From an uncultured Gemmatimonadales bacterium (lineage in GTDB: Bacteria; Gemmatimonadota; Gemmatimonadetes; Gemmatimonadales; GWC2-71-9), in contig CAWJIM010000002.1 in the NCBI GenBank assembly GCA_963842945.1, positions 128,001-192,000 on the forward strand: a stretch of 64,000 bases of DNA. Direction: 5' to 3'. The notes beneath the pieces are model-generated. The model ran no database searches and had not been told where the DNA came from. It worked only from the letters and a program-made list of their open reading frames with translations. Position numbers and translations under genes: made by a program. Positions 37,285 through 51,824 of the stretch are shown piece after piece; the first letter of the stretch is position 1; each line of letters starts with the position of its first letter.

Positions 37285-38193
37285 CTACGGCGTAAGCGGC
37301 TCCTCCGGCGGCGGCGCGGTGCGCTGGTTCTTCTGAAACTCGCGCTCCCGCTCCTTCCGCTCCCGCATCTCCCGAATCATGGTTTTGAACTCTTCCATGT
37401 TCTGGGCCCGCTGCGCCGCATACATCAGATCGCCGCGCAGATCCATGAGATGATTGTAGGCACGATTCTGGTCGATGTTTCCGGCTGGAATCGGAAGCAG
37501 GGCCAGCACCGCGGCCGGAATTTTCAATCCGGCAATGTAGATGTTCTTGCCATCCAGTCCGAACTTCTTCCCTGCAACCTGTGTGGTCCAGCTCGGCAGC
37601 CCCTGGTTGCGGTTGGCCGGATCATTGGCGATCGAGTCGAGATACGCCTGGACGATGCTGGTGACCGCGCTGTCGAGCAGCTCCGCCCGGCTGCGCGTGA
37701 GCCGCTGCGCCAACTCTTTGGGCGGAAGCGGAAGCGGACGTACCCACAGTCTGCCCTGGGCCAGGTCGGGACCTATCCGGCCCAGCGCGTCCGCCAGCGG
37801 CCGACGTGGCGCAGGCTGCGCCCGTGGCGTGCTGCCGGTGTCGGCGGCGGCCCGTTCAGGCGGCTTCTCCGGCAATGCCGCAACCGCCTTGCGAGGAGGA
37901 GTCGGCAGCGCCGGCCGCGACAGACGGTTTCCCCGGGCGCGCTCGCCTTCAGCCGGCGCACGGTCGTTCCGATTGGCCTGAGCCTCGGGCGGCTGATAGC
38001 GCATCGGTAGGTCCTCTCGCCCCTCGGATGGCGGCGAAAGCACGATCAACTGCCGAGGCAGCCTGGGAAGGGTAGGCCGGCGGCCGCTTACCGAGGTGAA
38101 AAGGAGGAGGCTGTGCACCAGCACGCTGGCCCCAATGGCAATCCAGGGCCAGGGCCTGCGCCGGGGAAGCCGGACATCAAACGGAGGTCGCAA
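37285..38193 (-). CDS. Hypothetical membrane-anchored protein
   Basis: N-terminal TM with SVLVHSLLL (TonB/TolA-like S-x3-H anchor), Pro-rich linker, helical C-terminus; overlaps the aminotransferase stop. Confidence 0.7.
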   Translation of the reverse strand: MRPPFDVRLPRRRPWPWIAIGASVLVHSLLLFTSVSGRRPTLPRLPRQLIVLSPPSEGREDLPMRYQPPEAQANRNDRAPAEGERARGNRLSRPALPTPPRKAVAALPEKPPERAAADTGSTPRAQPAPRRPLADALGRIGPDLAQGRLWVRPLPLPPKELAQRLTRSRAELLDSAVTSIVQAYLDSIANDPANRNQGLPSWTTQVAGKKFGLDGKNIYIAGLKIPAAVLALLPIPAGNIDQNRAYNHLMDLRGDLMYAAQRAQNMEEFKTMIREMRERKEREREFQKNQRTAPPPEEPLTP

Positions 38194-39371
38194 CCGGCCC
38201 TCGACGGACTTCTTTCAACACCTCGCCTAACCGCACGGCGGCTGCCTTGAGCCGATCCGCTCCGACCGTCAGCGCGATTCGAAAGAATCCTTCACCAGCA
38301 GGCCCAAAGGCACTGCCCGGCAGCACCACCACTCCATTCTGCTCCAGGGCATGCTTGGCAAAGGAGGCGGAGCTGGTGCCGGGGAGAGGCACCCAGAGAT
38401 ACATGGCGGCCTTGGGCGGATCGACCTTGAAGCCGGACTGAATCAGCGCCGCTACCGCCGCATCCCGGCGTCTCTGCAGCTCGGCACGGATCGGGGCAAC
38501 CAGCTCCTCGCTGTGCTCCAGGGCCGCGGCTCCGGCCTTCTGCACGGCCAGGAAGGGTCCGGTATCCACATACGACTTCACCCGGGTGAGCGCGCCGATC
38601 AGCTCGGCTCGGCCCGCGGCAAATCCCACCCGCCACCCAGTCATCGAATAGCTCTTCGAGAGGGAGAAGAACTCGAGGGCAACATCGCGGGCACCGGCGA
38701 TCTCGAAGATGCTGGGCGCGCGGTAGCCGTCGAAGGTGAGCTCGCAGTAGGCATTGTCGTAGGCCAGCAGGATCCCGTGGCGGCGGCAGGCGGCGACCGT
38801 TCGCTCAAGATATTCCACGGGAGCGATGGCCGCTGTCGGATTATTGGGATAGTTAACGAAAACGATTTTGGCTCGCCGCAGGACGTCGCTCGGGAAGCTG
38901 ATCCAGCTCCAGCAGGAACTCGTTTTCCGGCAGCAGCGGGGCGATGTACGGCTCGGACCCGGAGAGGAGTGCGCCGCCGAGGTACGCCTGGTACCCCGGC
39001 TCAGGCACGATTGCCACGTCGCCCGGATTGATCACCGCCATCGGCAGGTGCGACAGCCCCTCTTTCGAGCCGATGAGTGGGAGGATCTCGGTGAACGGAT
39101 CGAACCGCTGGCCAAAGCGCCGCTCGATCCAGCGGGACGCGGCCTGGCGGAATTCGGGAAGTCCCTGCTGAAAGCCGTACTTGCTCAACAGGGGGTTTCG
39201 CAGAGCCTCCGTCATCGTCTCCACGGCGACGTCGGGCGGCGGCGTGTCGTTGTCGCCCGCACCGAGATCGATGACATCCACTCCGGCTTCGATGAGCCGA
39301 CGCTTGATCGTGGGAATTTCGGCCAGAGGATAGCCGGGGAGACGCTGCAGCCGCTGACTGAAGCCGATCAT
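38177..39371 (-). CDS. PLP-dependent class I/II aminotransferase (LL-DAP aminotransferase-like; indel near 38880)
   Basis: LIGSKEG, NYPNNPT, YDNAY and SLSKSYSMTGWRVG. Confidence 0.9.
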
Positions 39372-39991
39372 TGGCCGTCCTGGCGAACAGGGTTCGAGAG
39401 GATGCCCACTCCACTGATCTCTACTTCCACCACATCCCGATCCTTTAGTGGCCCGGTTCCGGCGGGCGTACCGGTCGCGATGAGATCGCCCGGCTCGAGG
39501 GTCATGACCCCGCTGAGAAAGGACACGAGCTCAGGAATGGAAAAGTGCATGTCGGTTGCTCTTGCGCGCTGCCGCTCAACGCCATTCACGCGGCAACAGA
39601 GCTCCAAATTGCGCCAGTCCAGCCCGCCGGCAACCCGGGGGCCCACCGGACAGAAGGTGTCGAACCCTTTGGCCCTGCCCCACTGCCCATCGCTCTTCTG
39701 CAGATCCCGACAGGTCACATCGTTCACGCAAACGTACCCTTCAATGCCTCGCTCGGCGGAGGCAGGATCGGCATTCCGAAGCCGACGGGCGATGACCACC
39801 CCGATCTCGGCTTCGAACTCCACTCGCTGGCAGATCGACGGGAGCACGATCGAGTCTCCCGGACCGATGAGTGAGCTGGGCGGCTTGAAGAACACCATGG
39901 GCACCTGAGGCAGCTCGTTGCCCAGCTCCCGAGCATGCTCGAGGTAGTTCCGGCCGATCCCGATGATCTTCGATGGCTGGAGCGGCATCAT
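39368..39991 (-). CDS. Fumarylacetoacetate hydrolase family protein
   Basis: GRNYLEH, FEAEIG, NDVTCRD, AKGFDTFCP and TGTPAG. Confidence 0.93.
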   Translation of the reverse strand: MMPLQPSKIIGIGRNYLEHARELGNELPQVPMVFFKPPSSLIGPGDSIVLPSICQRVEFEAEIGVVIARRLRNADPASAERGIEGYVCVNDVTCRDLQKSDGQWGRAKGFDTFCPVGPRVAGGLDWRNLELCCRVNGVERQRARATDMHFSIPELVSFLSGVMTLEPGDLIATGTPAGTGPLKDRDVVEVEISGVGILSNPVRQDGQ

Positions 39992-42492
39992 ACGATGGCA
40001 CCGATGTTCTGCCGGGCAAAGAAGTCCTCACATTTCGTCCGGACCTGGGACCAACTCCCGACGATGCGATCGGCTCTGGGAAGCCCGCTCAGCAGGAGCG
40101 GTCCGTACCGCTTGGTGACGACTCGGCTATCCAGCAGCACCACAATACCGGTGTCCTGGCTACTCCGGATCAATCGGCCGAATCCCTGCTTCAACTTGAG
40201 GGCCGCGTGCGGCACCAGATAGTGCATGAACCCATCCAGCCCCTCTTCAGCCAGGCGCTCGAGTCTCGCCGCAGTGATCGGCTCGGACGGCACCTTGAAA
40301 GGTAGTTTGTTCAGAATGAGGGCGCGGAGCGCCCGTCCCGGCACATCCACTCCCTCCCAGAAGGAGTCGGTACCCAGGAGAATTGCGTTTTCGGCATCGC
40401 GGAATCTTTGCAGGAGCACATCACGGGGGGCCTCCCCCTGAACCAGCAGCGGCCAGCGAGCAGCCAAGCCTCCGCCCCGGAGCTCCTGTGCGGCCCGGCG
40501 TAGGGCGCTGTGGCTGGTAAACAGTACGAACATTCCACCATCCGAAGCGTACGCCAGATCGGTGACCACCTGGACCACCGCCGCTCCATGTCCCGGCTCG
40601 TCTACGCGCGGCTCCGGCAGATCGTTGGGCACGCCGAATACACACTGAGACGCGTAATCGAATGGAGACGGAAGTATTTCCCTCACTCGTACGGGCGAGG
40701 ACTCACCGCTCAGGCCAAGCCGGGACTCGAGGAACTCGAAGTCACCTGCCGCCGCCAGCGTTGCGCTGGTCAGCACGACGGTATCCAGCCGATCGAACAG
40801 CAGCTGCCGCAGCAGGGGCGCCAGATCGAGCGGAACTACGGAGAGGTTGACGTGCTGTCCGCGGGCGCTGCGCTCCATCCAGCGCACGCTGGGCGGTCCC
40901 CCGGGTGCCGGTCGCAAGGCGCGATTCAAGCCGTCGGACATGGTCTCCAGCCGGCGCATCACCCCGCGCAGCTCCTGAAGCAGCTGTTCCCGGCGCTCGG
41001 TTTCTTCGGCCTGGCTGAGGCGGTCGGCGATGATCTCCACTGTTTCCCTGAGCCCCCTGAACGCTCCGAGCGTAGCATCCAGATCGAAGCCGAGGCCCTG
41101 GTTCCAGATGGGATCGGCGGCGAAACTGTCCTCCAGCCGGAGCTGTCCCCCGGGAATATCCTCCAAGCGTTCCAGCAATCGAAGGAACAGCGCCTCGCTG
41201 GCCCGGCGCGCATCGGCAATGGCCGGCAAGAGGCGTTGCTGAAGCAGATCGAGGCTCGCCCGGCTCATCAGGTCGGAGTGGCTTTGGAGCTCATAGGAGA
41301 GGGTGGGAGCCAGACCCCGGCCGTTGCGCTCGAAGCGGCCCAGCAGGCGCCGCACGGCGCGACTGCTCACCTGAATGCCGAGGTGATTGGCGGCGACGTC
41401 TTCCAGGTGATGCGCTTCGTCCAGGATCAGCCTTCGGTACGGAGGCAGCACCGCCGCCTCCTGCCAGTTGTCCGAAGCCTGGCGGACCGACAGATCGGCC
41501 GCGAGCAGATGGTGGTTGACCACGACGACGTCCGCCTCGGCCGCGCGCCGCCGGGCGCGGAAGAGGAAGCACCGATCGAAATGAGGACACTTGAGACGGG
41601 TGCAGAGATCCGGCTCGGCGCTGACCTCGTCCCATACCTCTGCGGTGGGGGTGACCGGCAGATCGCTCAGCGTGCCATCAGCGGTGTGCCCGGCCCATTC
41701 GGCAATGCCGAGCAGCTCGTCCAGCTTGTCCTGCTCGAGCAACGTACGCTGGCCCGAGACCGCCTGATGCATTCGAGCCAGACAGAGATAGTTCCGCCAA
41801 CCCTTGAGCAGCGCGAAAGTGGGGGAGTACTCCTCATCGGAAAGCGCGCGGCGAAGCAGCGGCAGATCCTTGCCTACCAGCTGCTCCTGCAGGTTGATCG
41901 TGTTGGTGCTCACTACAGTGCGCTCACTGTTGGCCCGGGCCCAGGCCAGCGCCGGCACCAGATAGGCGAAAGACTTCCCCACCCCCGTGCCCGCTTCCAG
42001 CAGCTGAACCCCGCCATCGTTGTAGCCGTCCGCGATGTAGGCGGCCATGTCGCGCTGGCTCTGACGGTCTTCGTAGCGGGTGAGCTGGGCGGCTACCGGG
42101 CCATTCTCGCTCAGGGCCTCGACCACGTCGTAGGCATCGATGCGAACCACCGGGCGCTCTCGCGGCACCTCCACCACGACATAGAGCTCAGTGGCGTCGT
42201 TATTCAGGATGCCGAAGCCGACCCCTGCATCGTGCAGATGGGCCGCCACATTGAGATCCGCAACCGAGGGGTCCAGTCTGCCGCTGGGGTGATTGTGAAG
42301 CAGCAGCTCACCCCGCCGGGCGCCGGCGGGGAGCGCCAGGACCATCTCCACCGTGCCTCGTGCGACCACCCGAGCACCGGTGATCACACCATCCCGATCT
42401 ACGGTCGCGATGAACGACACTTCGCGTCCGCCGGCGGCGGAGATTTCGCTCGCCAGATAGGCCCGCACTCCGGGCGCGATCCGCTCGCTCAA
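39988..42492 (-). CDS. DinG family Fe-S helicase with N-terminal JAB/RadC-like domain
   Basis: HNHPSG..PS..D JAB motif; EAGTGVGKS, DEAHH, Fe-S Cys, FWEGVDVPG and QGFGRLIRS. Confidence 0.92.
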   Translation of the reverse strand: MSERIAPGVRAYLASEISAAGGREVSFIATVDRDGVITGARVVARGTVEMVLALPAGARRGELLLHNHPSGRLDPSVADLNVAAHLHDAGVGFGILNNDATELYVVVEVPRERPVVRIDAYDVVEALSENGPVAAQLTRYEDRQSQRDMAAYIADGYNDGGVQLLEAGTGVGKSFAYLVPALAWARANSERTVVSTNTINLQEQLVGKDLPLLRRALSDEEYSPTFALLKGWRNYLCLARMHQAVSGQRTLLEQDKLDELLGIAEWAGHTADGTLSDLPVTPTAEVWDEVSAEPDLCTRLKCPHFDRCFLFRARRRAAEADVVVVNHHLLAADLSVRQASDNWQEAAVLPPYRRLILDEAHHLEDVAANHLGIQVSSRAVRRLLGRFERNGRGLAPTLSYELQSHSDLMSRASLDLLQQRLLPAIADARRASEALFLRLLERLEDIPGGQLRLEDSFAADPIWNQGLGFDLDATLGAFRGLRETVEIIADRLSQAEETERREQLLQELRGVMRRLETMSDGLNRALRPAPGGPPSVRWMERSARGQHVNLSVVPLDLAPLLRQLLFDRLDTVVLTSATLAAAGDFEFLESRLGLSGESSPVRVREILPSPFDYASQCVFGVPNDLPEPRVDEPGHGAAVVQVVTDLAYASDGGMFVLFTSHSALRRAAQELRGGGLAARWPLLVQGEAPRDVLLQRFRDAENAILLGTDSFWEGVDVPGRALRALILNKLPFKVPSEPITAARLERLAEEGLDGFMHYLVPHAALKLKQGFGRLIRSSQDTGIVVLLDSRVVTKRYGPLLLSGLPRADRIVGSWSQVRTKCEDFFARQNIGAIV

Positions 42493-43784
42493 GTCTTGAG
42501 CTCTTTCTTCTTGGCCGCGGGAAACAGGACGTTGTTCAGGATCAGCCGGTATCCCGGCGAGTGGGGATGCAGGGAGAGGTCGGTCGGTACATCACCGATC
42601 TGATGCTGGGGATCCTCCGGATCGTGGCCTCCGAAGAACGTCCAGGTACCTTGCCCGTGCTCGCCATGAATGTATTTGACCCAGGGTGCGCCGGTCTCCT
42701 CACCCAGAACCGTGACGCTGGGCTTCAGCGTCTTACGGCTGAAGGAGGTGGTGAGACCGTAGAAGTCGGGAATGACCTGGCGATGGCTCTGGACCAGCAT
42801 GGTGGCGACGGGATCGATTTTGGCGCTGAAGTTGAACAGGGTAAACGATCCCAGCGGCTGGCGATGCTCCGGCGAGTTGACCTGGTGCCCGTCGATATCG
42901 GAGTACACGGCAATGGTCGGACTCAGCTCCAGCTCGGCGTTCTGGAACGCGAGCGTGCGCTTCCAGTTCATCTTGGCGCTGGCGTTCGGGTCCATGGGGG
43001 TGCCGTCGGCGTAGGAGGCAGCGATGTCCACCTTGTCCGCGGCCAGCGCCAGGTCGAGCGTCTCGGTGGCGGTGCACATCGCAAAGAGGAATCCGCCGCG
43101 CTCCACGAAGTTCGCAATCCCGATGGCCACGGCCTGCTTTTCGGCCGGTACCGAGACAAATCCCTGCGCCTGCGCCATGGCGCGGTTCCGCTCGACCATC
43201 TCCACCAGCCAGGGTGCTCCCGCGTAGTTCAGGAAAAACTTCGAATACTGGCCGGTGAAATCCTCATGGTGCAGATGGAGCCAGTCGTAGTTCTTCAGTT
43301 TCTGATCCAGCACCTCCCCATCCCAGATCTTCTCGAAATCGATACCGGCATAATTCAGCGCCATGGTGACGGCATCGTCCCAGGGCGGCGCGTTCGGTGG
43401 GGCATAGACCGCGACCTTCGGCGGTTTCTCCAGCGGAACGGCATCCATGTTCCCGCCCTGCAGGACACCCCGCGTTTCCGCCAGACGTCCGTCATCAATC
43501 GGCTCCACCGTGACGCCGGCAAGTGCCGCGTCCCTGGCGGTGGCGGTGTCTCCCGGCAGGAGAAAGGACCCGTTTCGGAAGTTGAGAAACCACTCTGCCT
43601 TCGCGCCCCGCTTCAGGGCCCGATAGGCGACGCCGTAGGCCTTGAGATGATCCGCCTGCGCGTCATCCATGGGAACCAGCAGCCATGGTGCCGACGTGCG
43701 ACCGGTGAAGAATCGGGCAGACAGCACCGGATGCAGAGCCGCCAGCCCGGTGCCGGTTCGGACGACAAACTCCCTCCGCTTCAT
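42489..43784 (-). CDS. Tat-exported class I glutamine-amidotransferase-like conserved protein
   Basis: MKRREFV twin-arginine signal; HLKAYG, PWDDAV, WLHLHHEDFTGQ, GGFLFAMC and GGHDPED. Confidence 0.7.
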   Translation of the reverse strand: MKRREFVVRTGTGLAALHPVLSARFFTGRTSAPWLLVPMDDAQADHLKAYGVAYRALKRGAKAEWFLNFRNGSFLLPGDTATARDAALAGVTVEPIDDGRLAETRGVLQGGNMDAVPLEKPPKVAVYAPPNAPPWDDAVTMALNYAGIDFEKIWDGEVLDQKLKNYDWLHLHHEDFTGQYSKFFLNYAGAPWLVEMVERNRAMAQAQGFVSVPAEKQAVAIGIANFVERGGFLFAMCTATETLDLALAADKVDIAASYADGTPMDPNASAKMNWKRTLAFQNAELELSPTIAVYSDIDGHQVNSPEHRQPLGSFTLFNFSAKIDPVATMLVQSHRQVIPDFYGLTTSFSRKTLKPSVTVLGEETGAPWVKYIHGEHGQGTWTFFGGHDPEDPQHQIGDVPTDLSLHPHSPGYRLILNNVLFPAAKKKELKT

Positions 43785-45517
43785 GTACGGGGGACCGCTC
43801 CCTTGGCTTCGTCCAGCTTGCGACGAGCCTGAGGCAGCAGAGCGCTCTGGGGGTAAGTGAGAATCAGATGTTCCAGCAGGCCCACCGCCTCACCCGCTCT
43901 CCCGGTTCCGATCAGCAGCTCGGCCAGCGCCAGCTCGGCTGCCGGGGCAGTTCCCGGTGCCTCGGGCACGGCTGCGGCCCGGAACAGCCGCTCGGCGTCG
44001 GTGGAGCGGCCACTGGAGAGCAGCAGCCGCCCGGCCAGCAGATTCAGCTCAGCCCCGCCGTGCGGCGGCGGCAGAGCGGAGCTGAGCTGCTCTAACGCGC
44101 TGCTCGCCTTGGCGGTGTCACCCTGCTCCAGCAGCAGCAGTGCGTGACCCAATTTGGGATTGCTGTCGGTTTCGAAGGTCTGCAGCAAAGCCAGCAGCGT
44201 GGTTCGCCAGGTGGCCTCCGCACGATCGCTGCTGTAAGGGCCCGCGGCCCTGAACCGCTCGACCGCGCCCTTGATGTCGCCCTGATACAAACTGACCCGC
44301 CCGCTCACGGCCAAGCCTTCCACGCTGCTGTCGGCGGCGATGGTGGAGTCGGCTCGGGCCAGATCACCAGCCCTGATCCAGGCCGACGCGAGCCTGCGCC
44401 GAAGGCTATCGAACTCGTCGGAGCTGAGCCGGGGGCGGAGCTCATGCAGATGACGTTCAGCTTCGGCCAGCTTGCCTTCGCTGATGAGCACATCCACCAG
44501 GGTGGCTCCGGCGTCAGAGGCGATGGCTGATGGCACCGCACGATCGTCGGATAACCCGCCCAGCATCCGTCGGGCTGCGTTCCGGTCACCCGCGGCCGAG
44601 TAGGCCTGAGCGGCTTCCAGTCGAAACCGTGCGGCCTGGCTCGGCGGAGAGCGCTCCGCCAGCGCTTCGAGAATCCGCCCCTGCGTCTGCTTTCCCGCCG
44701 GCGTCTGGTCGGGCCGGAGCTGATCGAGTAATCCCCGCAAAGCCGCGATCGCTTGGATGCGGTCCTCCGGAAGGCCGCTCAGAATGACTCGGAGCGCGCC
44801 GGAAGGATCGCCCCACCGGGCGCGCAGCTCTGCCTCCAGTCGGTTAGCGGCGAAATCCGTTTGCGAGCCCAAAATGCCCAGCAGATCGGGACGCAGGCGC
44901 TCTGGCGCCTGACTCAGGCTCGACACCGCCGCACTGCGGTAGCCGGGGAACTTGCGTATTGCGAGCAGCCATTCGCGTAGCGCCGCTGGGTAATCGCCGT
45001 TTGCCAGTGCCACCTGCGCCAACTCCGCCGCCAGCGCGTCCGGCTGACCGAGTCGGGCCCGGCCTCGCAGGTACGCAGCTTGGGCCCCGGCCCGGTTCTG
45101 TCGCCCCAACTCCGCCGCACCCCACTCGCGGTAGGGAGACTCATCGCCGGGCACCAGTTGGGCCCACTGCTCGGCCGTATTGCGGACCGAGTCGGGCTGC
45201 CCGGCAGCGGCCCAGGCCCGAAGCGCAATGCCGTAGATCGCCGGATTCCGCGGAGCCGCTTTCAGGGCACTCCGGATGGAAGGGATGATTTCCCCGCTGC
45301 GGTTGAGCGGCAGCAGCGAGCGCTCCAACCCGAGCAAGGCGGATATCTCCGCCGGCGAGCCGCGCAGGACAGACCCATACGCCTGAGCCGCCGCGGCATA
45401 GTCCCCCCGCCGCTCGAGATCGAGCGCCCGGTTGAGTCCTGCCGGCTGTTGACCCGCTACCCGAGCGGGCGCAAAGACAGCGGCGGCGATGATGAGGATG
45501 AGCACCGGAGTACGCAT
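43781..45517 (-). CDS. Secreted tetratricopeptide-repeat protein
   Basis: Signal peptide, Ala/Leu helical repeats and C-terminal LEHLILTYPQS. Confidence 0.8.
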   Translation of the reverse strand: MRTPVLILIIAAAVFAPARVAGQQPAGLNRALDLERRGDYAAAAQAYGSVLRGSPAEISALLGLERSLLPLNRSGEIIPSIRSALKAAPRNPAIYGIALRAWAAAGQPDSVRNTAEQWAQLVPGDESPYREWGAAELGRQNRAGAQAAYLRGRARLGQPDALAAELAQVALANGDYPAALREWLLAIRKFPGYRSAAVSSLSQAPERLRPDLLGILGSQTDFAANRLEAELRARWGDPSGALRVILSGLPEDRIQAIAALRGLLDQLRPDQTPAGKQTQGRILEALAERSPPSQAARFRLEAAQAYSAAGDRNAARRMLGGLSDDRAVPSAIASDAGATLVDVLISEGKLAEAERHLHELRPRLSSDEFDSLRRRLASAWIRAGDLARADSTIAADSSVEGLAVSGRVSLYQGDIKGAVERFRAAGPYSSDRAEATWRTTLLALLQTFETDSNPKLGHALLLLEQGDTAKASSALEQLSSALPPPHGGAELNLLAGRLLLSSGRSTDAERLFRAAAVPEAPGTAPAAELALAELLIGTGRAGEAVGLLEHLILTYPQSALLPQARRKLDEAKGAVPRT

Positions 45518-45521
45518 CGAT

Positions 45522-45560
45522 TTACCTTGTCGGCGGCTGGGTCAGGCGGCGGAGGTAATC
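45522..45560 (-). pseudogene. Stranded original 3' end of the DUF4175 gene
   Basis: Translates DYLRRLTQPPTR*, matching the DYFRRL end of DUF4175; stop lies 4 nt before the TPR ATG. Confidence 0.7.
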
Positions 45561-48500
45561 TATTCCGAACCGGGTCAGCTTGGGCATAACTGGATACTAC
45601 TCCAGAGGCGACTCGAGAGGGAGTTCGGTTAGAACGAGTAGTCCACTGTAGTCCCGAGTAGTCAGCTGTTGTGGCCCAGTTCTGACACAGCGGCCAACAG
45701 AGAATATGATCGCGCTAAGATGTCGCTGAAAGAATCGGCTCGATGAGTGCCTTAGAAAACGCCGCTGGTCGCATGGCCCGGCAAGAAAATTTCGGATATA
45801 GCTTTCTAGCGTGGAATCGACGGCCCTGCGCACCCAGCTACAGACAGCCCTGGCCAAGTCCTACACCCTAGAGCGCGAGATTGGACGCGGGGGCATGGCG
45901 ACGGTCTATCTCGCCCATGACCTGCGGCACGACCGCCCGGTTGCGCTCAAGGTCCTCCACCCCGAGCTCAGCGCCGCGCTGGGTCCGGAGCGCTTCCTCC
46001 GGGAGATCCGGCTCTGCGCCCGCCTGCAGCATCCGCACATCGTCTCGGTTCACGACAGCGGCGAAGGCGGCGGCCTGCTGTGGTTCACCATGCCGTTCAT
46101 CGATGGCGAAACGCTGCGAGAGCGGCTCGCCCGGGAGAAGCAGCTGCCGGTGGAGGAGGCGCTGCGTCTCACCCGCGAGGTAGCCCTGGCCCTCGACTAC
46201 GCTCACCGGCATGGCGTGATCCACCGCGACATCAAGCCGGAGAACATCCTGCTCTGCGACAACCAGGCGCTGGTGGCGGACTTCGGCATTGGGCGGGCAC
46301 TCGGGTTGCCGGGGGCCGGCGAGCGACTGACCGAGACCGGATTCGTGGTCGGCACGCCGGCGTACATGAGCCCGGAGCAGGCTGCTGGTGAGCGAGACCT
46401 GGACGGCCGGTCCGATATCTACAGCCTGGGCGTGGTGCTGTACGAGATGTTGGCCGGTGAGCCGCCCTTCACCGGTGCAACTGCACAGGCGCTACTGGCA
46501 AAGCGCCTGACCGGCGACATCCCACCGATCAGCCGGGTTCGGCCGACCGTGCCCCAGGAGATAGAGCGGGTCGTAGGAAAGGCGCTCTCCTCCAACCCCG
46601 CCGATCGCTTCACCACGCCGGCCGCATTCGCTCAGGCCTTGTCACAGCCTGTACTCGAACGCACCGAGGCTCTGCATCCCTCTCCGAGAGCCCGGCGCCG
46701 AATCCGCCTGGCGCCGCTTCTTGTCGTTTTGGCCGTGGCCGCGACCTTGGTTGCCTTCCTCTTGCTTCGGCGGAATTCGGCGGCCGAGGGCGTACGCGCG
46801 GGCTCAACCCGTCTCGCGGTTCTTCCCTTCGACAACCTGGGCACGCCGGAGAATGACTATCTCGCCGACGGAATAACCGACGCGGTGCGCGGAAAACTGC
46901 ATCACCGTGCCGGGAATCCAGGTGATCGCCCGCAATAGCTCGAGTCAGTACAAGCAGACCGCCAAGACCCCACAGCAGATCGGGCGGGAGCTCGACGTGC
47001 GCTATCTCCTGACTGGAACGGTGCGCTGGGACGAGGCTCCAGGCGGGTCCCGGCGGGTGCAGGTGAGTCCGGAGTTGATCGACGTCGCCGATGCCACGGC
47101 AGAGTGGCAGCAGCCGTTTGACGCGCCGCTCACCGATGTGTTCCAGGTCCAGGCGGATATCGCCGGACGAGTGGCCGAGGCCCTGGGGGTGGCGCTGGGC
47201 ACGGGCGAGCGGCAGGTCCTGGCCGAGCGGCCCACGGCCAACCTGGCGGCCTACCATGCCTATCTCAAGGGCGAGGAGATTTCGGCTGGGCTGGCGACTG
47301 GCGGGACCGTCGCCCTAAGACGAGCGGCGACCTACTACGAGCAGGCGGTGGCCCTCGACTCCACCTTCGCTCTCGCCTGGGTCCAGCTCTCCCGAGCCAA
47401 CTCGCTGCTCTACTTTCGCGGGGCGACCGGCAGGACTACCGCAGAGCAGGCGCTGCGCGCGGCCCAGCGCGCGCTGGACTTGGCGCCTGAGCGTGCCGAG
47501 GCGCACCTCGCGATCGGCGATTATCACTCGAACGTGGTGGGCGACTACGCGGCCGCGCTGGACCAGTACGCCCAAGGCCGTCGCCTTACCCCGGCCAGCG
47601 CCGACCTGCTCACCGCCACCGCACTCGCCGAGCAGAGGCTGGGTCACTGGGACTTGGCGCTCAAACATCTGGACGAGGCGCGGCGAGTGGATCCCCGCTC
47701 CGCCTTCGCCGCCCGACGATACGCATTCGCCCTCCAGTGGCTGCGGCGATATGACGATTCGTTCGCCGCCTACAACACCACGCTGGCGTTGGATTCGCTC
47801 AATCTCGCCTCACTCGAGCAGAGAGCCATGGTCCGCCTGGCCCAGGGTGACCTGCCCGGGGCCCGCGCCGCGCTCCGTGCAGCCCCGCGAGAGGTGGAGC
47901 CGACGGCTCTGGTGGCCTATGTAGCTACCTACTGGGATCTGGTGTGGCTGCTCGACCAAGAGCACCTCGAGCTGCTCTTGAGACTGACCCCGGCGCCGTT
48001 TGGAGACGACCGGGGCGACTGGGGTCTGGCGCTGGCTCAGGGTCATGCCCTCCGGGGTGACTCGAGCCGAGCCCGGGCGTACGCCGACTCCGCAAATGTG
48101 TTTTTCGAGGAGGAGATTCGAGCTACCCCCGATGATTACCAGACCCGTATGGCCCGGGCGCTCGACCTGGCCTATCTGGATCGGAAGGCAGACGCGGTGC
48201 GGGAGGGTGAGCGGGTGGTGGCGGCGCGTCCGGTTTCCAAGGATGCGTACACCGGCGCCTACTTCCAGCACCAGCTGGCCCGGATCTATCTCCTCGCGGG
48301 TAAGCCCGACCAGGCGATCAATGTGCTCGAGCGGCTGCTGAAGATCCCCTATTTCCTGTCGCCTGAATGGCTCCGGATCGACCCGACGTTCGAGCCGCTC
48401 CAGAGTTATCCTCGATTTCAGAAGCTGATTGAAAGATCTCGGCGTCCGGGTCAGGCGCGCGGGTAGTGGTTTTGAGGCCTCTGAAGCTGCCGGGTTGGGA

Positions 48501-48591
48501 CATTGCCGACCCTGTGCCAGGAGCGGTTGTGTATGTGGTGAAATTAGCGGGGGTTGCTCGGCCGGGGTTCGGAGAGGCGGCGGAAGTAATC
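45544..48591. mobile_element. Inserted kinase cassette bounded by 17-bp direct repeats (no integrase present)
   Basis: AGGCGGCGGAGGTAATC (45544-45560) vs AGGCGGCGGAAGTAATC (48575-48591), 16/17 identical; cargo is on the opposite strand to the host operon. Confidence 0.65.
45811..48466 (+). CDS. Ser/Thr protein kinase with TM, TolB-like and TPR domains (indel near 46905)
   Basis: GRGGMATVY, VALK, HRDIKPEN, DFG and GTPAYMSPEQ; LAVLPFDNLG; TPR tail ending LRIDPTFEPL. Confidence 0.93.
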
Positions 48592-51500
48592 CACCACCAG
48601 TCGCCGCTCCTCCGGCGACAGCTCCTGCAGCTCTTCCCATGAGGGAACCCGGAGCCGCTGATCGTCGCCCATCAGCCGGGCCTGCAAGGCGGCCGGCAAG
48701 TGGACGCTGTCGTCCGTTGCCGTGGTGCTCTGCCGCTCCTTCCGTTGATCTTCTTCCCGGCCCTGCAGCGTGCGACCGGCATCCAGCATGCGGCGGAACA
48801 GTCTCTCCTGGCGCTCGACCACCTGACGGTCGAGCCGGCCCGCCTCCAAACGCCGGGACAGGTCCTTGGCCTCGTCCGCCATCTGCCCCGCTCCCGAGAT
48901 GTCGCCCTCCCCCCGAAGCCTCTCCAGCTCCTGAGCCAAAGCCCGCTGCCTGGCGGCCAGCCGCTGGAGCTGCTCTTGCATCCCACCGCGACCGATCATC
49001 GGCAGTAATCCGGCGCCCTCCTTGCCCAGGCCACCCTGCTGCTGCGCTAATTGAGCCATGCGCTCGAGAGCTTCGGCCAGGCCCGAGCCCGACTGCGCGC
49101 CCGAGACATCGTCGCGAGCCCGAAGCAGCTGATGGGCAGCGGCATTCAGATCATCCACTGCGTTGCCGGCCTGCTCCGATGCTTCCCGCGTGTTCGGGGC
49201 CGCCGAGGAGATGGCTTCACGGGCGCCCTTCATCTCCACTTGCGCGGCGCCCAGCGCGGCGGCGATTTGGGGCGAGACCAGCGCGTTCTTGCCGCCAGCC
49301 TGCTTCATCTGCTCGAGAATCTTTTTCACTCCTTCTTCTATCGCAGCTTGTTCGGCGCGAGTGGCCGCATCCGGCCCGCCCCGCTGAAGGTCCTCCTGAA
49401 CCTTCAGCTGGCGCTCGGCCAAGCGACTGGTTTCGGTCAGGGCCTGGTCCATGGTCTGGGCCACTTCCTTCCTCCACTGTTGCTGTAGCTGCTGCCGTTG
49501 CCGCTGGATCTCGTCGCCCAGAGGATCGAGCGAGCGCGATGCCGCTTCACCCCGATCTCGTGCGTCCCGGCGCTGGCCCTGGCGCATGGCCCCGGCGGCG
49601 CGGCGCATCTGCTCCGCTGCCATTCGGGCCCGGCCAGCCGAGGCATGCAGGCTGTCTGGACGGTCTGCTTCCGCCGTCTGCCCTGCTGCCCGCTTGAGCG
49701 CGGCGGTGAGCGAGTCGGTGCGCCGGGCCAGCTGCTGCTCGGATTGAGCCGACCGGGTACTGTCGCCGGAGCCGGTTTGCTGGTTCCACTGGCGCTGCTC
49801 CTGAGCCAGCTCCTTGGATTCCTGCGCCAGGTTTGCCAGGTCTCCTTCCAGCGCTGCTCGGCGGAACAGCTCCCGGCTTCGCTCCAGCGCCTCACGCAGC
49901 TGCCGCTGCACATCGCTCAACTGCTCCAGCGCATCTTTCGTGCGCTCCGCGTCCAGATCCTTCAGGGCCTGCTGTAGCGCCGCGAGCCTTTCCCGCAACT
50001 CTGGAGACACCGCCCGATCCAGCTGATCCCTTATCTCGGCGAGCTGGCGTTGCCAGCTCGAGTCGTTCAGGCCGGCCGCCTCGGCGCTCCGCTGCAACGC
50101 CTCGAGCGACTGCTTGAGGCTCTCCGCGCTCCGAACCAGGTCTTCCTGCGATCGGGCGACCGCCTGCGCTCGCTGGGACTCCTCGTACGTCAGCGATTCC
50201 CGGTTCCTCTCTCCCTGGCCGGTGGGCCGGAGCCGCTCCTGCGCCAGATCGTCGGTCTGCCGTTCAACCCGACGGCTCGCTTCGAGCACCGAATCCAGCT
50301 GGCCGGTGACGGACTGGCTGGCCTGCCGCTCCGCCGCCCTCACCTCACTCATGGTGGGCAGCCGGAGCACGAATTCACGTGACCGCCCAACGTGAGCCCG
50401 CGGTGCATTGTCCATTGCACTGGCCCGGTACCGCACGGTATCCCCGGGGAGAAGTCCTCGCCGATTGAGATCGAGGGTATAGCTGAGAATGGCCCGGTCG
50501 GTGCTCTCGTTCGGAAGAGGGACCCTCTCCCGCCGAGTGGAGTCTGCTACGCCAAATCGGCTGATCCGGCGACTCTCCACCGTCACCGCGGAAACCCGAT
50601 GATCGTCACGCACATCGAGCACCAGGGGAAGCTTGAGACTCAGCGGCGCGAGCGTGTCCGTTCCCGGCACCGGTATGGCTACTGCGGGGCGCTATCCAAC
50701 ACCAGGCGAATGGGCAGCCACACCGAGTCGCCCGCGATCGCCGCGCCGGTTCGGGTGACCAATCCCAGTTGATACGCACCCGAACGAACCGGTGTGAAGC
50801 TCCCGAAAAAGCGATTCCCGTTCACCTGCAACGACTCTGCAGCGGCGCCATTTCTCCAGCTTGCGCCGGCCAGAGGCGCCGTGACCTCTCCCCTCGTTTC
50901 CAGCCTGGTGCCCGCCGGCAGGATCAGCGTGTCTCCGCCGGTTGGTACCGGCTCGTTTTCGAGTCCCAAATAGCCGGGGTACTTCGCGGTCACCTCAATG
51001 GATCCGAGAAACACCGGGAGCCGAACCCGTACGGCTATGGTGTCAGAGGCGCGACTTCCGCTGGTCAACCGGGCGAACAGATCACTGGTGAGTGGAGGGG
51101 TAGAGACCGTTGCCCGGCCGAGCGAATCCAGCCGAACACCGAGAGGCTTCCAGCTTTCTCCGGGCGAGCGGAGCCAGAGTGTAGCGGCCTTACGGCCCAT
51201 GGCTTCCAGGTGAAGCTGCACCGGCTCACCGCGGTCAACTGTGGATCGCTCGGCCCGCAGCCGGACAGGAGCAACGGTGGCTTCCCACGACCTGCCGGGG
51301 TACCAAAGCGCAGCAGCCACGCCTTTGACCGGCCCCGCCGTGGTAAAGGCCAGGATTCCAATCAGTAGAAAAACGGCGCTTCCCAGGAGCAGCGCTCGAA
51401 CCGGACGAGCGATTGGCTCCAGTGCCGAGTGACCGCGCGCGCGGATTTCGTCGGCCTGGGTGCGATCGGCCAGCTGGAACAGCGCGTGACTGGTGCCGGA

Positions 51501-51824
51501 CGCCGAGCGGTCCAGCAGTGCCGTCAAGCTTCCCCGCCGCCAGGCACCGAGATCCTCCAGACTGCGGGCCAGAGACGGCGGAGTCAGCTGGCGTTGGTTG
51601 CGCCAGGCCAGATAGGCGATGCCGCCAAGTCCCACGAGGGCAAGCCCCCAGGCGGCCAGCACCCAGTACGGGGCCGTGAGCCAGCCGAGCCGAACCAGCC
51701 AGGCCGAGCCGCCCAGCAGAAGGGCGGCGGTGCCCAGCGCCAAGGCGATCCAGGCCAGCCAACTCCGGCTCCTGAGTGGCTGGACCAGATGGTGAAGCTC
51801 CTGCTGCGTCGCAAGCGCCGTCAC
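48544..51824 (-). CDS. DUF4175-like membrane-anchored coiled-coil protein (indel near 50680)
   Basis: N-terminal TMs, Ig-like middle, long Gln/Glu/Arg coiled coil and VVDYFRRL end; restoring one G joins the two ORFs. Confidence 0.8.

Follow-up and report, generated by a model that had tools for sequence, protein, structure and literature searches.

A kinase-bearing islet in the 3' end of a DUF4175 gene of Gemmatimonadales, very probably the remnant of an integrative element

In the genome of an uncultured Gemmatimonadales bacterium (G000), a short islet with a single kinase gene occupies the 3' end of a gene of the DUF4175 family, and we consider it very probably the decayed remnant of an integrative element whose tyrosine integrase targets this gene end through an attP that carries a replacement tail. 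The empty site, the replacement tail, the linkage to an integrase and the repeated occupancy of the site were all established by comparison with other genomes. The window, to which all coordinates without a contig label refer, is the whole stretch of 64,000 nt of contig CAWJIM010000002.1 that was analysed.

The target gene (48544..51824, minus strand) encodes about 1100 aa in relatives. In the assembly it is split near 50689, where it is one base short relative to G098; its piece in the window stays below the Pfam cut-off (19.8 vs 27.3 bits), and the full-length orthologue of G024 lies above it (29.3 bits). The next host gene encodes a TPR protein (43781..45517, minus strand), recognized by its ORF, its Pfam TPR match and its adjacency in relatives, and it directly follows DUF4175 in the empty alleles. 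Two genes downstream of it there is a DinG-like helicase with an N-terminal RadC-like JAB domain (39988-42492; Pfam E 1.6e-6). Single-base differences from G098 split both DUF4175 (50670-50689) and an aminotransferase-like gene (38177-39371).

Between the ends of the islet there is only the kinase gene. It had been described as one antisense Ser/Thr kinase-TPR gene; the Pkinase and TPR domains are indeed there, but in the assembly they fall in two frames split by one base. The first frame (45811..46938, plus strand) encodes a Hanks-type Ser/Thr kinase domain (Pfam Pkinase, E 5.5e-50) with the motifs VALK, HRDIKPEN and DFG, together with a hydrophobic, probably transmembrane segment, and the second (46907..48466, plus strand) encodes the TPR-containing C-terminal part (Pfam TPR). 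The split is due to one extra base near 46899 when compared with the intact 879-aa orthologue in G075, and no contig of the related runs spans it. Assembly indels are the likelier cause of the frameshifts, because DUF4175 and the aminotransferase-like gene also differ from G098 by single bases. An AT-richer composition was confirmed for the 248-nt leader (GC 0.53) but not for the kinase gene (GC 0.67, like the neighbours), whose GC and GC3 match the host.

The first-pass annotation had delimited the segment by a 17-bp direct repeat (45544-45560 and 48575-48591, identity 16/17). Both copies are present as described, but the true extent of the identity block at attL and attR is 19 bp (45544-45562 and 48575-48593, 17/19), because homology to the empty alleles begins at 45562. 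The repeat by itself is weak evidence and outside evidence is needed, since 47 of 300 random 4.2-kb windows of the genome hold an equal one (at least 16/17, with the copies at least 1 kb apart). Allowing one mismatch at most, the left 17-mer was located in the 4.3-Mb genome at 2 places, both of them the islet copies, and the right 17-mer at 3. It is the reading frame and the relatives that give the repeat its meaning. Read on the minus strand, the left 17-mer encodes DYLRRL and the right one DYFRRL, and the tails behind them (all tails are written here up to the stop codon) end in TQPPTR and SEPRPSNPR, respectively; DYFRRL with its new tail at the right copy and the stranded in-frame tail at the left were thus both reproduced as first read.

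At the left end, the stranded original 3' end of DUF4175, which is the host side of attR (45522..45562, minus strand), reads DYLRRLTQPPTR and a stop codon. It shares 94% identity over 48 nt with the empty junctions of G011 and G114, its TAA lies 4 nt upstream of the TPR ATG at 45517, and the sister genome G068 has the tail AQPPTR. The attR copy of the duplication (45544..45562, minus strand) contains the probable crossover core, 6-8 bp within TAGATTAC (45555-45562). Its left boundary was taken from the comparison of the window's attR with the empty alleles, and its right boundary was inferred from the occupied and empty alleles of G024, which diverge after TAGATTA. These bases are the Val-Asp-Tyr codons, 13 residues ahead of the DUF4175 stop. 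On the element side, CGGAA (45563..45567, minus strand) is an inverted repeat of TTCCG across the core and may represent a core-type integrase site; a decayed junction in G078 carries GAATAGATT at the equivalent position. At the right end, the attL copy (48575..48593, minus strand) reads TGGATTAC in place of the TAGATTAC shared by attR and the six nearest empty alleles, so that both cores are present with one mismatch inside the core. It is followed by the replacement tail SEPRPSNPR (48544..48574, minus strand), of 9 residues when compared with the usual 6, and by an element-end remnant (48467..48543, minus strand).

We then consider the empty site. Among 103 genomes of the genus, the DUF4175 end was found in 94 and the TPR start in 93, and the empty allele, in which the DUF4175 end adjoins TPR, is present in 87 of the 94 (G065 counted as one entry, G024 entered through its contig C82). 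In the seven others, the gap is longer (G000, G078, G080 and G061) or TPR is not on the same contig (G087, G089 and G124). The six nearest relatives have the tail DYFRRL(T/A)QP(S/P)(T/P)R followed by 4 or 5 nt to the TPR start, and 6 residues is the tail length in 56 of 70 distinct junctions. DUF4175 and TPR adjoin as expected for the original operon junction, and the alignment of the junction gave empty alleles with a matching tail directly before TPR in the nearest relatives. A 316-nt contig of run X6 also joins 45543 to 48575, skipping 3031 nt; it comes from a relative rather than from the window's strain, its left part showing 23 differences and 6 gaps. Runs X1-X14, for which contigs only were used, share at most 0.14 of their words with the genome and give no indication of its habitat. 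In G080 (C129, L068) and G061 (C455, L067) about 100 and 200 extra non-coding nt, respectively, lie between DUF4175 and TPR, with a 9-residue tail and a GC-rich hairpin in G080. The extra DNA is possibly a scar of older insertions; having no stranded tail, the two were not counted as occupied alleles.

On the other hand, four of the 94 genomes are clear or decayed cases of occupancy (G000, G024, G087 and G078), and the cargo next to the site differs among them: a kinase in G000 and G024, an integrase and primase in G087, and a DUF2380 gene in G078. In G024, the tail SEPLPPNPR is followed after about 80 nt by the start of a sense-direction kinase, and a second contig, which overlaps by 122 nt, goes on as the empty allele, giving both alleles in one MAG. 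Behind the tail of G087, SQPTPPNHR, lie a PF00589 integrase gene and, after another 1.1 kb, a Prim-Pol/AAA_25 gene; 4.6 kb of this element can be seen before the contig ends inside it. G078 has a 9-residue tail, the DUF2380 gene and a decayed stranded tail. Tails of 9 residues occur in G000, G024, G087 and the metagenome loci L101, L102 and L103, and the DUF4175 frame is open to the stop in each. We also built a tree of 54 hosts from the DUF4175 DNA that precedes the tail (FastTree with midpoint root, no formal clade test); the four occupied genomes fall in four clades there, each beside an empty genome. The site had been called an integration hotspot; its repeated use is real, but "repeatedly used site" fits better because the occupancy is low (4/94).

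The ends of such elements are seen unequally. The only clear attR is that of the window, in addition to the decayed one in G078, and the search for one in G024 and G087 gave none. We recovered no element complete at both ends, the contig of G087 ending inside and L101-L103 spanning 1.0-1.7 kb. An attR-like pattern matched 7 of the 103 genus genomes, with one attR identified (that of the window) and three matches at empty sites. A family-wide tail pattern, which would miss divergent tails, matched only G000 and G024 in 401 genomes (17 others of the genus). The SEPxPxNPR pattern gave 0 matches in metagenome contigs and the DUF4175-end pattern 0 in viral contigs. Two attR-like matches in viral contigs, without a DUF4175 or TPR match, were dismissed as chance. 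Contigs of G089 (L070/L071) and G002 (C128, L072) end exactly at the att core, like an assembly branch.

The comparisons support the view that the site is used by an identifiable clade of tyrosine integrases supplying the replacement tail. The PF00589 integrase of G087 has the residue pattern R-K-H-R-H-Y, which we take to be the catalytic pattern of tyrosine recombinases, and its five closest proteins are 61-79% identical to it. When metagenomes were scanned with an alignment of these six integrases alone, with no DUF4175 sequence in the query, 3 loci (L101-L103) were obtained among 255 pattern matches, and 3/3 begin at a DUF4175 end, with the tails AEPRPSNPR, SESPPAKSR and AESLRTNPR, respectively. 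All four clade members with known context (G087 and L101-L103; P0002-P0006 have none) are thus at the DUF4175 site, and the four group with P0002 and P0003 with a FastTree support of 98, set off from the 35-50% identical relatives, which mostly lie near tRNA genes; L101 fills only 27% of the columns. Each of the L101-L103 integrases matches in two pieces, and therefore they may be decaying or mis-assembled. None of 12 other loci of the genus and 16 other loci in genome contigs (34-50% identity) matches DUF4175 or TPR, and most are near a tRNA gene. The integrase search gave 0 matches in viral contigs; one distant viral-contig locus obtained with the integrase alignment was set aside, as it is not at DUF4175.

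The right end of the window's islet is homologous to these integrase-bearing junctions. It is nearly identical to L101, and the alignment with it reaches 79 nt beyond the core, of which about 48 nt are beyond the stop (local score 108, z=27); for the part after the stop alone, z=14 against L101 and 4.8 against L103, with -0.2 for the empty-allele control. The homology of the element-end remnant runs to about 48496 and extends into a single eroded copy of the arm. What comes next in L101, the integrase gene, is missing from the remnant, and at the point where L101 continues into the integrase, the window has the kinase stop codon. No integrase match was found within 45400-48700, and none of the clade in the 87%-complete genome G000, in agreement with the claim that the recombinase has been lost, although an integrase missing from G000 could be unassembled since the genome is incomplete. 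PF00589 has 4 matches in G000, two of them broken integrases at tRNA-Leu islands; a profile built from 60 relatives picks up only these two and misses the others. The remnants on C18 and C16 were rejected as helpers in trans, being broken, of another clade and at their own tRNA-Leu sites. Clade integrases were not found in G024, G078, G080, G089 or G002 either, and the suggestion of a recombinase acting in trans is not supported by the genomes G000, G024 and G078.

The left end also contains a doubled 11-bp motif (TGTGTCAGAAC TGGGCCACAAC; 45668..45689, minus strand), 127 and 116 nt before the core. L101-L103 have the same motif with the same 11-bp period at +93/+94 and +104/+105 after the core, in the orientation seen in the window, and its exact form occurs 7 times in the 4.3-Mb genome. 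After attL, G087 has a different motif, GCAGTAGAA, twice, and G024 is without a clear arm motif. The doubled motifs are candidate integrase arm sites; in the window the left doubled motif is intact and the right is reduced to one eroded copy. A sigma-70-like promoter candidate facing the kinase (45682..45710, plus strand; CTGACA-17-TATGAT, 10/12, 0.1 expected in shuffles) was recognized by consensus match only. Its -35 hexamer sits within the left arm-like motif, and this overlap could partly explain the match of that motif. No terminator-like site was found at either islet end.

These features would be accounted for as follows. A tyrosine integrase would recombine the core in the 3' end of DUF4175, and because attP would carry a replacement 3' end, integration would leave a complete gene with a 9-residue tail and strand the old tail at attR, with the integrase gene following about 190 nt after the new stop. 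In the lineage of the window, the integrase and the replication genes would then have been deleted, with the att ends and one kinase gene behind a promoter in the left end as the probable leftover, and the core mismatch and the eroded right arm would make excision inefficient. A chance repeat, or a microhomology-mediated insertion without a site-specific recombinase, is extremely improbable: repeats of this quality are common in random windows (47/300) and the segment has no integrase, but its non-coding homology to integrase-linked junctions, the 4/4 clade integrases at this site and the occupation of four host clades at the same codon all speak against it. We also consider it unlikely that the islet is a still-mobile non-autonomous cassette, moved by a helper integrase in trans or in tandem with an incoming element. 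Such a cassette would agree with the intact left motif and core, with the occupied and empty alleles of G024 and their 122-nt overlap, with L101-L103 beginning 14-31 nt before the core, where the G089 and G002 contigs also break as assembly branches would, and with a similar kinase-only segment between tRNA-Leu 3' fragments (G000:C19). However, of the right arm one eroded copy is left, the cores of attL and attR are not identical, G000, G024 and G078 are without a clade integrase, the two alleles in one MAG can be two strains, and the same kinase was not found at the DUF4175 site in any other of the 103 genus genomes. No excision circle or attP junction was seen among the 15 of 57 joints listed for contigs of the related runs. 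As no clade integrase was found, the right arm is eroded and the cores mismatch, a decayed, CIME-like remnant is the best reading of the islet.

The element may also be real while the kinase is not its cargo, having landed later in the neutral space of the decayed element by gene-sized transfer or duplication; we regard this as possible, though somewhat doubtful. The closest orthologue of the kinase (G075:C239, L180; 84% nt identity) adjoins an MFS gene, ending 10 nt before it, with homology stopping 2 nt past the stop codon, and the MFS orthologue of G000 (C6) has no kinase in front. The host-like GC and GC3 of the kinase point the same way, and so do the lack of any integrase-bearing element seen with a kinase at the DUF4175 site and the 23 of 72 kinase loci lying within 6 kb of another kinase. 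Nevertheless, G024, from an unrelated host clade, also has a kinase start about 80 nt past the replacement tail, the tRNA-Leu island on C18 of G000 combines a broken wider-family integrase with a kinase, and a kinase lies within 4.5 kb of 3/8 tRNA-fragment loci against 0.136 per random point (P about 0.08; the 8 loci are our own grouping of 13 fragments, with 2 matches dropped as not being 3' ends). The kinase may have arrived with the element or afterwards.

The first-pass annotation had also proposed integration as a route of Ser/Thr kinase family expansion. The route is real but minor, with about 5 of the 72 kinase loci of the genome (20 of which match in several pieces) between att-like ends: one in the islet, one on C18, one on C19 and two on C5, the last three contigs having their att-bounded segments at tRNA-type sites. 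Islands are thus one route and not the main one, since these loci are few, full tRNA genes show no enrichment (9/72 kinases within 10 kb vs 11.5 at random), 23/72 loci are clustered and the closest orthologue is elsewhere in G075. At G000:C19:553727-558918 (L192), there are three tandem tRNA-Leu(TAG) 3' fragments with one kinase in the 3.5 kb between the first two; the second fragment is preceded, at about 110 nt, by a doubled 11-bp motif, a layout as in the window's islet. The 7.6-kb island at tRNA-Leu(TAA) in G000:C18:68060-75666 contains a broken integrase 41% identical to that of G087 and a kinase that is among the closest paralogues of the one in the window, and G000:C5:247-6641 has two kinase-domain genes between two tRNA-Phe 3' fragments, with a kinase fragment after the second. 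A doubled motif of the same type also follows the stop codon of a gene ending in DFGKFNP, presumably bifunctional-nuclease-like, at a distance of about 110 nt in G024 (C155, L187) and G078 (C171, L191), and is absent there in G000; this gene end is possibly a second protein-gene att site.

The islet resembles the CIMEs, which are described in the consulted part of PMC5704250 as having lost integration and transfer genes while retaining attL and attR; excerpts of PMC5704250, PMC7563491 and PMC5812530 give CIMEs and microCIMEs in Streptococcus, e.g. those related to ICESt1/ICESt3 in the 3' end of fda. It likewise lacks integration and transfer genes, keeps both att ends in the 3' end of a protein-coding gene and carries a passenger gene. 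However, its parent looks like a primase-bearing satellite-type island (Prim-Pol and AAA_25 in G087) rather than a shown ICE or IME, the host order and target gene are new when compared with the fda CIMEs, and neither a tandem with an active element nor mobilization was seen. Like the icd prophages, fis PICIs and HE-PICIs, the elements at DUF4175 have a short core inside the gene and an attP with a replacement sequence; the consulted part of PMC10111431 describes a typical 7-bp exchange segment and attP replacement sequences for icd and tRNA targets. The same part reports that in HE-PICIs a doubled motif, which may bind integrase arm domains, lies at distances of 81 and 132 bp from the core. 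Our doubled motifs are also co-oriented on each side of the core, at about 94 and 127 nt, but their sequence differs and the HE-PICIs belong to another tyrosine-integrase clade. Streptococcal ICEs in rplL, rpsI, lysS, rpmG and guaA are given in the consulted part of PMC4701971. In contrast to the icd, fis and ICE types, the DUF4175 replacement tail is three residues longer and divergent instead of identical, and the target is mid-operon, so that the TPR gene downstream is separated from the genes ahead of it. The wider-family tRNA integrases of Gemmatimonadales, Acidobacteriota and Eisenbacteria share the same domain at 35-50% identity, some near doubled motifs with an 11-bp period, and lie at tRNA-Leu, Phe, Met, Asp, Asn or Cys/Gly, whereas the DUF4175 clade has changed its target to a protein gene.

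The mechanism is therefore a known one, of the icd, fis, guaA and fda types, and the target site with its integrase clade is apparently new. In the full-text literature searched, no paper combines DUF4175 with an integrase (subscription papers, bioRxiv supplements and TIGER, outside this scope, could list the site) or Gemmatimonadota with an integrase and attB. The kinase-related literature has nothing on the DUF4175 site by title or abstract start among the matches listed, and the supplement of PMC12884075 does not contain DUF4175.

A bolder reading, which we put forward as rather improbable, is that Gemmatimonadales keep integrase-less single-gene kinase islets, with att cores, arm sites and an arm-embedded promoter, which helper integrases of one family would move between protein-gene and tRNA sites, the kinases being swapped as cassettes. 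If so, the integrase itself may bind the promoter of swapped receptor-like Ser/Thr kinases. Apart from this, the site yields a native attB mapped with precision, together with an integrase clade and an attP that can be reconstructed, in an order that has hardly any genetics, and the DUF4175 attB/attP pair could serve as a neutral integration tool. It is also an example of an integrase family that has moved from tRNA targets to a mid-operon protein gene, and gives a concrete case of a receptor-like kinase in a decayed island, such cases being a small but measurable share of the 72 kinase loci.
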